From Eledone cirrhosa (Eukaryota), in NCBI GenBank assembly GCA_964016885.1, contig OZ024750.1, forward strand, positions 1,364,001 to 1,428,000: a stretch of DNA of 64,000 nt, read 5' to 3'. A program made the position numbers and the translations under genes. The notes under the pieces were generated by a model. The model ran no database searches. It had not been told where the DNA came from and saw only the letters and a list, made by a program, of their open reading frames with translations. Below are positions 40,844 to 63,531 of the stretch, one piece after another; position 1 is the stretch's first letter; each line of letters starts with the position of its first letter.

Positions 40844-41233
40844 TAAAATACAAATATTAATAAAATGGATGTTCATTTGATCAATTAAATTTTATCATAC
40901 ATATTTCAGAGGTACAACAGTACGTCCTCATCAGACAAAATATAATGATACATGATATACCCTGAGATGTTAAATGGTTAAGATTTAATCAAAGTAGTAA
41001 ATCTTAACCATTTAACATCTCAGGGTATGTCATGTATCATAATTTGTCTGATGAGGACGTACTGTTGTACCTCTGAAATATGTATAATAAAATTTAATTG
41101 ATCAAAAGAACATCCATTTTATTAATATTTTTATTTTAATATTAATAACTCTGGAAAATATTTTTACTGTAGAGTGCTTCCAATCTACTGTAAAACTCAT
41201 TCTTTGATGTACTCATTGAATCTTGTTTAACTC

Positions 41234-58535: not shown

Positions 58536-61148
<2,613 letters not shown>

Positions 61149-61205
61149 AGTTTTAATATAGATAAGATTCTACAGGACTAGAACTGTTTCATTCTTTAGA
61201 ATCAA
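61149..61205 (-). mobile_element. Family F1 fragment (HHR stem II-III)
   Basis: ttctacaggactagaactgtttcattc is identical to 1939-1965; stem II loop here is taaa instead of tccc. Confidence 0.75.
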
Positions 61206-61255
61206 GATATATATATATAAAGATATATATATAAAGATTATATATATATATATAT

Positions 61256-61303
<48 letters not shown>

Positions 61304-61443
61304 CTATATCTTTATATATATATATATATGTATCTATCTATATATATATATATATATATGTATCTATCTATATATATATATATATATCTTTATATATATA
61401 TATATATGTATCTATCTATATATATATATATATATATATACAT

Positions 61444-61475
<32 letters not shown>

Positions 61476-61541
61476 CATTATATATATATATATACATTAT
61501 ATATATATATATACATTATATATATATATATATATATACAT

Positions 61542-61579
<38 letters not shown>

Positions 61580-61593
61580 ATATATATATACAT

Positions 61594-61627
<34 letters not shown>

Positions 61628-61648
61628 ATATTATATATATTATATATA

Positions 61649-61744
<96 letters not shown>

Positions 61745-61792
61745 TTTTATATAACTTCATATATATATATATAAAGATATATATATATATAC
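61206..61792. repeat. Degenerate (TA)n tract
   Basis: Read directly. Confidence 0.95.
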
Positions 61793-61931: not shown

Positions 61932-62021
61932 TATATACAATCTTGCTACAGAACCCGTCGAATGAAACCAATGAAAGTATCAGTTTAATGAAGATGTGCA
62001 CAAACTGTTGTAATACACATA

Positions 62022-62260
62022 TTGAATTACGAAAGCTTGCGGGAAGTTATTCACCTGATCAATGACATGTTAATTTTAAGAGACCAACAATCCGGATTTC
62101 GTGATAAGAGATCATGCACTGATATATTTGCATTGCAACGTATTATTGAAAGCACATTCGAATACAAATTAACGGCAGCTATTAACTTTGTCGACTTCCA
62201 GAAGCCTTTTTACAAAGTGAAATGTTACATGGAAAATTGTCAGATATTACGTAACAATGG
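62022..62260 (+). mobile_element. RTE-like LINE reverse transcriptase fragment
   Basis: ILRDQQSGFRDKRSCTDIFALQRIIE...INFVDFQKPF matches the QxGFR..RSC.D and FVDF.KAF motifs. Confidence 0.85.
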
Positions 62261-62615
62261 AAACTTTAAACAATATAATGAAGACAAGGAATGAATTGCG
62301 CAACGTTCCTTCTGCATCGAGCACTTTGGTGAGTAATGGCCTCACTGATATTCAGCGCCTCCATTCTGATATATATTAATATATATATGCTTCGGCGGAA
62401 GCAGGGGATGCGTGGTTCTGATGATCGCTAACCAGCCTGAAACAGACTGTTAGCTTCTCTCCCGTCTTTCGCCGAAAAGAAGTAAGTGACATAGTCAATA
62501 CTTTAAAACCGATAGCGTAAGGTCTTCTCAATGTTGTTAATCAAACATACGGTATATTGCCAAATATACTATACATACATTCATATATACATCGCTATTT
62601 CAGAGCACCAATCTT

Positions 62616-62649
<34 letters not shown>

Positions 62650-62700: not shown

Positions 62701-62763
<63 letters not shown>

Positions 62764-62825
62764 AATTAATATCTAGTAACATATATAGAGTCCTCGCTTT
62801 GCCTGGATACTTAGCTGAGAATAGT

Positions 62826-62905
62826 CTTCCCTGACGACGAAATGATTCTCCATACTTTCTTCGGAAAGTATATTTATTCCATTTCAGAAACTAATTAGTT
62901 GGAAG
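62826..62905 (+). ncRNA. Type I hammerhead ribozyme motif (F8, copy 1)
   Basis: cttcc CTGACGA c-gaaatg..atactttc-TTCG-gaaagtat..catttc-a GAAA ctaattag TT ggaag. Confidence 0.8.
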
Positions 62906-63316
62906 TGAAATTTTAGTAAGTAAGTTAATTTTATAATTTTCTTATTTTACGTCTCTCATGCATTGAACCACAAAGCTACTAAGACAAAACCTATATATTT
63001 GCTAGCATTGATATGCATCTGTATGTATATATGTTACTAGATATTAATTCTTTATAATTATCTCCAAATTATTTGTCGAGCAATATTGGCCTGAACTGCT
63101 GCTATGGTAGCAGGCAGACCACTGTCTTATTAGCAAACCACTTTCCACTGATTGACCTCGATGTCACGTGATTAATTCTTTTTGAATTTGCCACCGACAC
63201 AGAGGCAGTGATTTTCTCAATGGCTAGGAATTCAGTCCACGCTTTGCTATCCACTGAATATTTTTATATAATTTTCCAGAGTCCTCGCTTTGCCTGGATA
63301 CTTAGCTGAGAATAGT

Positions 63317-63396
63317 CTTCCCTGACGACGAAATGATTCTCTATACTTTCTTCGGAAAGTATATTTATTCCATTTCAGAAACTAATTAGTTGGAAG
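63317..63396 (+). ncRNA. Type I hammerhead ribozyme motif (F8, copy 2)
   Basis: Same motif 491 nt downstream. Confidence 0.8.
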
Positions 63397-63442
63397 TGAA
63401 ATTTTACTAAGTAAGTTAATTTTATAATTTTCTTATTTTACG

Positions 63443-63531
<89 letters not shown>

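Follow-up and report, generated by a model that had tools for sequence, protein, structure and literature searches.

The two-hammerhead cassette described here lies in the window, a 64,000-nt stretch of Eledone cirrhosa DNA, and is best explained as one copy of a dispersed, non-coding hammerhead family that would be mobilised in trans by a Neptune-type Penelope-like element (PLE) and whose RNA would be cut by its own ribozyme in the germ line. We put the probability of this reading as a whole at about 0.7. The family itself is of an ordinary kind, namely a non-LTR retrozyme or non-autonomous PLE. The value of the case lies in the junction evidence, not in the single cassette: the family provides countable genomic evidence that would bear witness to a germ-line cut and to the use of each of two reverse-transcriptase (RT) start sites once per insertion. 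The same junction count is applicable to any PLE or retrozyme family, in any assembly.

Results

Architecture of the cassette

The cassette includes two direct repeats of 173 nt each (62787-62959 and 63278-63450), spaced 491 nt apart and differing at two positions only (62851/63342 and 62916/63407). Each repeat carries stem I, CUGACGA, stem II with a UUCG hairpin, GAAA, a palindromic stem III and GUU. The near-identical repeats and the complete set of hammerhead parts reported in the initial annotation are thus both present, with one predicted cut per repeat (Table 1), and so is the (TA)n setting, on both flanks. No ORF had been seen in the cassette, and indeed its longest stop-free frame is 53 codons, at a GC content of 33%. 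The 31-bp inverted sequence that caps the left end is, as had been noted, an exact copy of sequence inside the cassette, but that sequence is not an arbitrary internal one; it is the distal 3' end of the family. The cassette ends with site B on the left and site A on the right, which is the one-A-one-B rule of the family described below.

Table 1. Features of the two-hammerhead cassette, in window positions
Feature	Position	Strand	Basis or remark
(TA)n run, left part of likely target site	62703..62760	.	repeat content
31-nt inverted arm, outer end = site B (distal 3' end)	62757..62787	-	100% match to 63026-63056, opposite strand
Direct repeat 1, upstream 5'-truncated partial unit	62787..62959	+	repeat comparison
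Hammerhead 1, including extended stem I	62808..62922	+	fold and alignment; predicted cut after 62900
Hammerhead 1 landmarks	C3 62831; extra C 62838; G10.1 62839; C11.1 62885; extra A 62886; G12 62887		
Predicted cut-to-cut RNA, 491 nt (family monomer 522 nt)	62901..63391	+	
21-nt deletion junction, just 3' of internal site A, between short CAT repeats	62957..62962	+	alignment
Internal site B copy, distal 3' end of other copies	63026..63056	+	identity and alignment
8-nt deletion site relative to other copies	63244..63256	+	alignment
Direct repeat 2, ending at site A (proximal 3' end, ~60 nt past cut)	63278..63453	+	
Hammerhead 2, private G>C at 63407	63299..63413	+	predicted cut after 63391
(TA)n run, right part of likely target site	63449..63531	.	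repeat content

A type I hammerhead with a conserved core

The family has the type I order of the core segments CUGANGA, GAAA and NUH. In unconstrained folding of the 131-nt region around each hammerhead, the minimum-energy structure has the hammerhead topology, and forcing the exact active pairing costs 2.3-2.5 kcal/mol. The whole 173-nt repeat folds no better than shuffles (z -0.99); the 491-nt monomer folds better than shuffles, with z -4.1 as a linear and z -4.4 as a circular molecule (25 shuffles). Rfam returned no family at the gathering score in the window, and its matches by E-value were only TA-driven noise.

Core positions are 96-99% conserved in 164 loci, with the exception of the variable position 7. 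Across 26 diverged rows of the alignment the base of stem II is 98.7% paired. Pair 45-95 is formed in 26/26 rows by four pair types (AU 9, UA 9, GC 6, CG 2), and another pair occurs in two types. Two-sided change in stem II amounts to 52 cells against 20.7 in shuffles, a shuffle that ignores relatedness, and the pair-type covariation measures (60 and 274 of 500) do not exceed the shuffled values. Between subfamilies the alignment of the distal UUCG hairpin is poor, with 47.5% paired. Of the covariation anticipated in stems I to III, the two-sided kind is found in stem II, but stem I shows one-sided changes only (96.9% paired), and stem III never varies among the rows; because the search pattern fixed stem III, its invariance gives no covariation evidence. 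Core, fold and stem II covariation together bear out the proposed type I hammerhead with a self-complementary stem III.

The initial annotation had also flagged a C10.1-A11.1 mismatch as a possible cause of reduced activity. This is not damage. A G10.1-C11.1 pair is intact in 26/26 rows, with an extra C and an extra A on either side of it; G10.1 is fixed by the search pattern, yet G stands at 97%, and C11.1 at 97%, in an anchor-independent sample. One additional nucleotide, a C, follows A9 and another, an A, precedes G12; each is found in 99% of the 164 loci, whose anchors lie mostly outside the core. Because these two nucleotides are family-wide and the G10.1-C11.1 pair is intact, they do not represent decay, and what had been taken for a mismatch is better seen as these two additions on either side of a G-C pair. 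An ORF-bearing family of the same genome (L064, L065, L075) has a nucleotide on both sides too. According to PMC4209133, PLE ribozymes typically have one nucleotide that separates position 9 from position 10.1; in axolotl, a U-U mismatch is reported at the base of helix II (PMC7229834), and the axolotl Amex2 retrozyme motif has a mismatch there.

The stem III region has a computed energy of 0.0 kcal/mol alone and of -10.8 kcal/mol as a 12-bp dimer with a second copy. A 12-bp stem III duplex, with no lone hairpin, is as expected if cleavage were to proceed in the dimer.

A dispersed family with a 522-nt unit

The hammerhead pattern matches the genome 10,016 times (control 0), and a 22-mer near site A has 3,789 exact matches; these counts are of motifs, not of insertions. 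A genome DNA search with the cassette gave 2,265 first-look candidates, and among the 40 scored the long matches are 85-95% alike. Close copies have a unit of 522 nt; in subfamilies that are 69-89% alike it measures 522-571 nt, and homology between subfamilies extends along the whole unit (69-95% identity). Copies are dispersed and non-coding, with variable 5' ends and mostly fewer than two units per arm. On their upstream side, arms longer than one unit pass into a further non-coding unit, and one locus (L255) reaches about four; two intact hammerhead cores are present in 24/235 arms, those of the window cassette included. The GC content of 33%, the lack of an LTR layout, judged by the variable 5' ends, and the multiple copies are those of a non-LTR retrozyme. 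That the element is multi-copy and non-autonomous, as first suggested, is borne out by the thousands of motif matches and the lack of a coding frame; the genome search that had been proposed found a high copy number and tandem units, but not the linkage to RT and GIY-YIG frames (50 of 150 places examined).

The spacing of 491 nt had been taken as the unit of the element. Relative to the 522-nt unit, however, the alignment shows that the window copy lacks 21, 8 and 2 nt; that is, 31 nt were lost locally, with no sign of spread, and 491 nt is a local deletion variant. The junction of the 21-nt deletion occurs at two places genome-wide. The other place (L240) belongs to a subfamily only 87% alike, so the deletion arose twice, and a 491-nt subfamily was rejected on account of these two places and their independent origins. 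The description of the cassette as young holds only in a moderate sense: the nearest of 163 other sampled loci differs from it by 3.0%, against a median nearest-neighbour distance of 1.3%.

A motif variant with a short stem II is found at 22 genome places and, by matched sequence, resembles deletion forms of the family. Contigs from four sequencing runs cover the flanks and the family sequence, none of them spanning the cassette, and their summed depths do not represent a copy number. Four short contigs from a second organism (depth ~3) do not suffice to place the family in another species.

Each inverted insertion has one A end and one B end

Monomer positions are numbered from the first base after the predicted cut. 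Family copies stop near position 60 (site A) or near position 177 (site B), ~118 nt apart, and a TA run follows 219/225 of the 3' ends. Because the ends lie in (TA)n, target-site duplications are unreadable. For site B, 93 of the first 100 places (383 genome-wide) were retrieved and three duplicates dropped, leaving 90 arms. An adjacent inverted arm lies beside 62 of these, and the partner ends at A in 59 cases, at B in none and elsewhere in three. The 58 loci drawn from the first 100 A-region anchor matches contain 36 inverted pairs, namely 29 A+B, no A+A, one B+B and six with an end elsewhere. In the A+B pairs the tail is present at one end only. A one-end tail is already known from PMC8557442; its length here, ~118 nt, exceeds both the 30-40 bp described in that paper and the 38-66 nt of the local autonomous families. 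PLE-type insertion anatomy is supported by these features: partial tandems, inverted truncated arms, one-A-one-B ends and (TA)n targets. In one locus (L105:1225-1378) a family copy's site-B end is joined directly not to (TA)n but to coding sequence of a different PLE.

The two arms of an insertion are concordant at 95.0% of polymorphic site pairs (72.2% expected), and tandem units at 96.5% (72.6% expected). Locus-private alleles are present in both arms 12 times, in 9/95 loci. This concordance of arms and of tandem units fits copying from one template; gene conversion, or a single source active in any given period, could also account for it. A further point against the one-template reading is the within-locus difference of 2.2-2.3%, which is larger than the 1.3% median nearest-neighbour distance. 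Tandem units share subfamily alleles, and no difference between upstream and downstream units clearly recurs. Formation of the inverted arm by fold-back of one cDNA was rejected as a general rule, because A arms often hold sequence that is missing from the B arm (L155, L194).

The same features bear on whether the family is a satellite-like repeat that spread as DNA, through unequal crossing over or rolling-circle DNA for instance, and carried the hammerhead as a passenger. The homogenisation of tandem units within a locus would agree with such an origin, but the inverted arms, the TA targets and 3' ends that stay fixed while the 5' ends vary match retrotransposition, the copies are dispersed with mostly fewer than two units per arm, and stem II has compensatory changes. 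We regard a satellite as highly improbable and largely refuted already.

Junctions accumulate just downstream of the predicted cut

Single-arm 5' ends fall at positions 1-20 in 17/148 cases against 8.3 expected (p 0.005), i.e., about twofold; the interval 386-405 is more enriched (15 against 5.7 expected). In pairs, both arms stop at positions 1-20 in 8/93 cases, where ~2 are expected (Fisher p 5.5e-5); one of the eight, L178, is ambiguous. The monomer region 386-408 is a truncation hot spot in a T-rich stretch, near the 5' end of the window copy itself. A template end at 381-405 or at 441-465 was considered and rejected, co-termination there being 1/93 and 0/93.

Genome-wide, 94 head-to-head junctions lie at positions 6-12, just 3' of the predicted cut. 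Junctions at the 10-nt stem III palindrome just 5' of the cut (512-518), which is the better palindrome, number 2 and 6 for two patterns, those further upstream (432-438) number 3, and those downstream (~31-37) number 24. Reversed-pattern controls gave 0 for 6-12, 59 and 8 for 512-518, 0 for 432-438 and 2 for ~31-37. With counts of 59 and 8 the two controls at 512-518 are uninformative, and for one of these patterns the control of 8 is greater than the 6 real matches. Among the diverged rows the pre-cut patterns cover 25/26 and the post-cut pattern 15/26. Since the pre-cut patterns cover more subfamilies, the contrast of 94 to 8 is conservative.

Twenty of the 94 junctions were sampled. They are 74-100% identical to the reference, and their flanks share only short repeats; 14 are clean A+B pairs, 5 have one end off and 1 is unclassified. 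Most have the form of a short palindrome, and in 5 the arms differ in that one has a full unit more. Probably a few of the 94 are duplicates (three lie within 9 kb on contig C3, and the arms of L231 and L303 are alike). In 12-nt bins, the 5' ends of 224 arms number 5, 3 and 5 before the cut and 18, 11 and 6 after it. The stops cluster at positions 3-12, not at position 1. Arms also co-terminate elsewhere, as in L131, where both stop beside the UUCG hairpin; thus, folded RNA can give the same stop pattern.

The junction excess is likely to be a fossil record of cleavage in vivo. It might instead be that the same non-autonomous element has a ribozyme that stays uncut in vivo, that RT stalls at stem I or transcription starts near position 1, and that long copies derive from uncut tandems. 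Such an account draws on the stops at 3-12, which lie inside the 3' strand of stem I, on the co-termination beside the UUCG hairpin, on the further hot spot at 386-405, and on the finding that the main substrate in vitro was uncut RNA (PMC11167929). It has to face the drop from 94 junctions to 8 over ~15 nt, despite the 10-nt palindrome upstream, and the step between the bins before and after the cut. The conservation of the catalytic positions, variable position 7 aside, also counts against it, and a start site at the cut would be a coincidence. We consider it unlikely. Published results do weigh against our preferred reading: the one element that has been reconstituted, a Poseidon, could do without its ribozyme in vitro, and RNA ends at its cut were not found (PMC11167929); of nine Xenopus dimers, one cleaved (10.64898/2026.07.22.740005).

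In titles and abstracts of the literature, with subscription papers mostly outside this set, we found no report of a truncation pile-up at the cut site of a PLE or retrozyme, no one-A-one-B count and no description of this family.

Autonomous Penelope-like elements in the same genome

Four ORF-bearing families (L061, L063, L064, L073) have an RT followed by a C-terminal GIY-YIG domain, as seen by Pfam on three ORFs. Their two fixed ends are 38-66 nt apart, and inverted insertions of these elements have one of each end too. The CxxxxCxxC linker and the description in PMC8557442 suggest, without a tree, that they are Neptune-type. The window cassette contains no RT or GIY-YIG ORF and is not an autonomous PLE by this measure. 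Among 50 of 150 scored GIY-YIG places (10,596 candidates), none is an autonomous element with the family's 3' end, and the ends and ribozymes of these 50 loci differ from those of the family. In the loci inspected, no family arm is continuous with an RT/GIY-YIG frame; the PLE frames close to family arms are neighbours or, in L105, the insertion target.

These loci also speak to whether the copies could be no independent lineage but orphan pseudo-LTRs, the ends of an autonomous PLE after 5' truncation. The same loci commonly hold short inverted insertions of autonomous families that consist of ends only, and the GIY-YIG places examined are 50 of the 150 scored out of 10,596 candidates, both of which lend this explanation some weight. 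Nevertheless, arms of more than one unit run into another non-coding unit (about four in L255) and not into a GIY-YIG frame as would be expected, and diverged subfamilies are homologous over the whole unit at 69-95% identity. The copies are thus very unlikely to be orphans.

Some other families in these loci deserve mention. The ORF-bearing Neptune-type families at L061:3809-6622, L073 and L080 have hammerhead-like motifs in their terminal repeats whose first core segment is changed from CTGANGA to TTGAAAA or TTGATAA, which recalls the U3-A8 variant of PMC4209133. Another non-coding two-hammerhead cassette (L062:7510-8419) has a period of 459 nt and a long stem II flanked by one base on either side; this cassette and the family of the window both have a GTTCT...GAACC hairpin just past the proximal end. 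In short inverted pairs of L064-family ends (L077, L089, L119, L175, L197), both arms extend beyond the ribozyme and terminate some tens of bases upstream of it, perhaps where transcription starts, in contrast to the family of the window.

Discussion

A model of propagation

In the mechanism that we propose, a Neptune-type RT/endonuclease would act in trans and cut (TA)n on both strands. Two cDNAs would be primed on one RNA, the first from site A and the second from site B, and would be joined head to head at microhomology. The ribozyme would cut in the germ line, probably as a dimer. Because the cut lies only a short way upstream of both start sites, cut linear RNA would give only short palindromes, dead ends of ~55 + 170 nt. 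Copies of more than one unit, that of the window included, would derive from RNA with intact ribozyme junctions, i.e., from re-ligated circles or uncut tandem transcripts. As the source of these longer copies we slightly favour circles, at not quite an even chance, because linear copying only shortens, whereas arrays of about four units exist and their tandem units have subfamily alleles in common, which favours passage through a monomer that is copied repeatedly. Uncut tandem transcripts are a lesser but serious candidate, and template jumping would take the remainder.

It is conceivable, and we hold this more tentatively still than the circle itself, that the genome preserves the trace of a complete cycle that depends on the ribozyme: a dimeric RT would prime twice, cut monomers would be dead ends, and only re-ligated circles would sustain the lineage. 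The role of the hammerhead in PLEs is stated to be unclear in PMC8557442. If this version of the cycle were true, selection would act on the hammerhead for its part in making circles, the purpose of such ribozymes would be explained, and a circular RNA would be a transposition intermediate in an animal.

Relation to known systems

Metazoan non-LTR retrozymes of coral, mussel and axolotl (PMC7229834; 10.64898/2026.07.22.740005) are alike in their short non-coding tandem units, one type I hammerhead per unit, weak palindromic helix III, low GC, thousands of copies and co-occurrence with PLEs. The unit of 522-571 nt exceeds the 150-450 bp of PMC7229834 but lies within the 51-972 bp of 10.64898/2026.07.22.740005. 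The present family differs in its long bulged stem II, its dispersed insertions and its explicit PLE ends. Cleavage was demonstrated by experiment in the retrozyme papers, and circles too in PMC7229834, whereas both are predictions here.

With the Neptune-clade PLEs (PMC8557442; here L061, L063, L064, L073) the family shares partial tandems, an inverted 5'-truncated arm and a tail at one end, and, as described in PMC8557442, (TA)n targets and a hammerhead shortly before the 3' ends. Unlike them, it has no RT or GIY-YIG frame, and no sequence homology to their ends was found. The Poseidon element PAc (PMC11167929) is alike in that two RT start sites, already known from that work, bound the tail, that targets are AT-rich with both strands cut and extended, and that a dimer is predicted. 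In vitro, PAc used its sites on either strand without difference, and its ribozyme was dispensable; the present family instead has one A and one B end per inverted insertion, TA microhomology at both ends and a pile-up of stops after the cut. Non-autonomous Chlamys such as MRC1 (PMC8557442) are likewise non-coding PLE dependants with pLTRs and head-to-tail copies. Chlamys generally have an autonomous-like 3' end and mostly lack a canonical hammerhead, whereas the present family has a hammerhead, and no matching partner for it was found among the 50 GIY-YIG loci.

Other repeats in the window

Next to the cassette on its left side lies another hammerhead-like repeat, unrelated to it (62387-62622; CTGATGA at 62418, palindromic stem III), which ends in (TA)n. 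This repeat is heavily covered by the sequencing-run contigs and also forms an inverted pair in L032. A decayed fragment of a LINE-type reverse transcriptase is found at 61992-62288 (QSGFR..RSCTD..FVDFQK; weak Pfam RVT_1 match, E 0.07), and a degenerate (AT)n tract of ~3.2 kb, in which AAAGATT and GTATCT form higher-order units, occupies positions 58536-61791. Two more inverted pairs of hammerhead-like motifs, at ~1940-2030 and ~40880-41100, are probably short inverted ends of other Penelope-type families.
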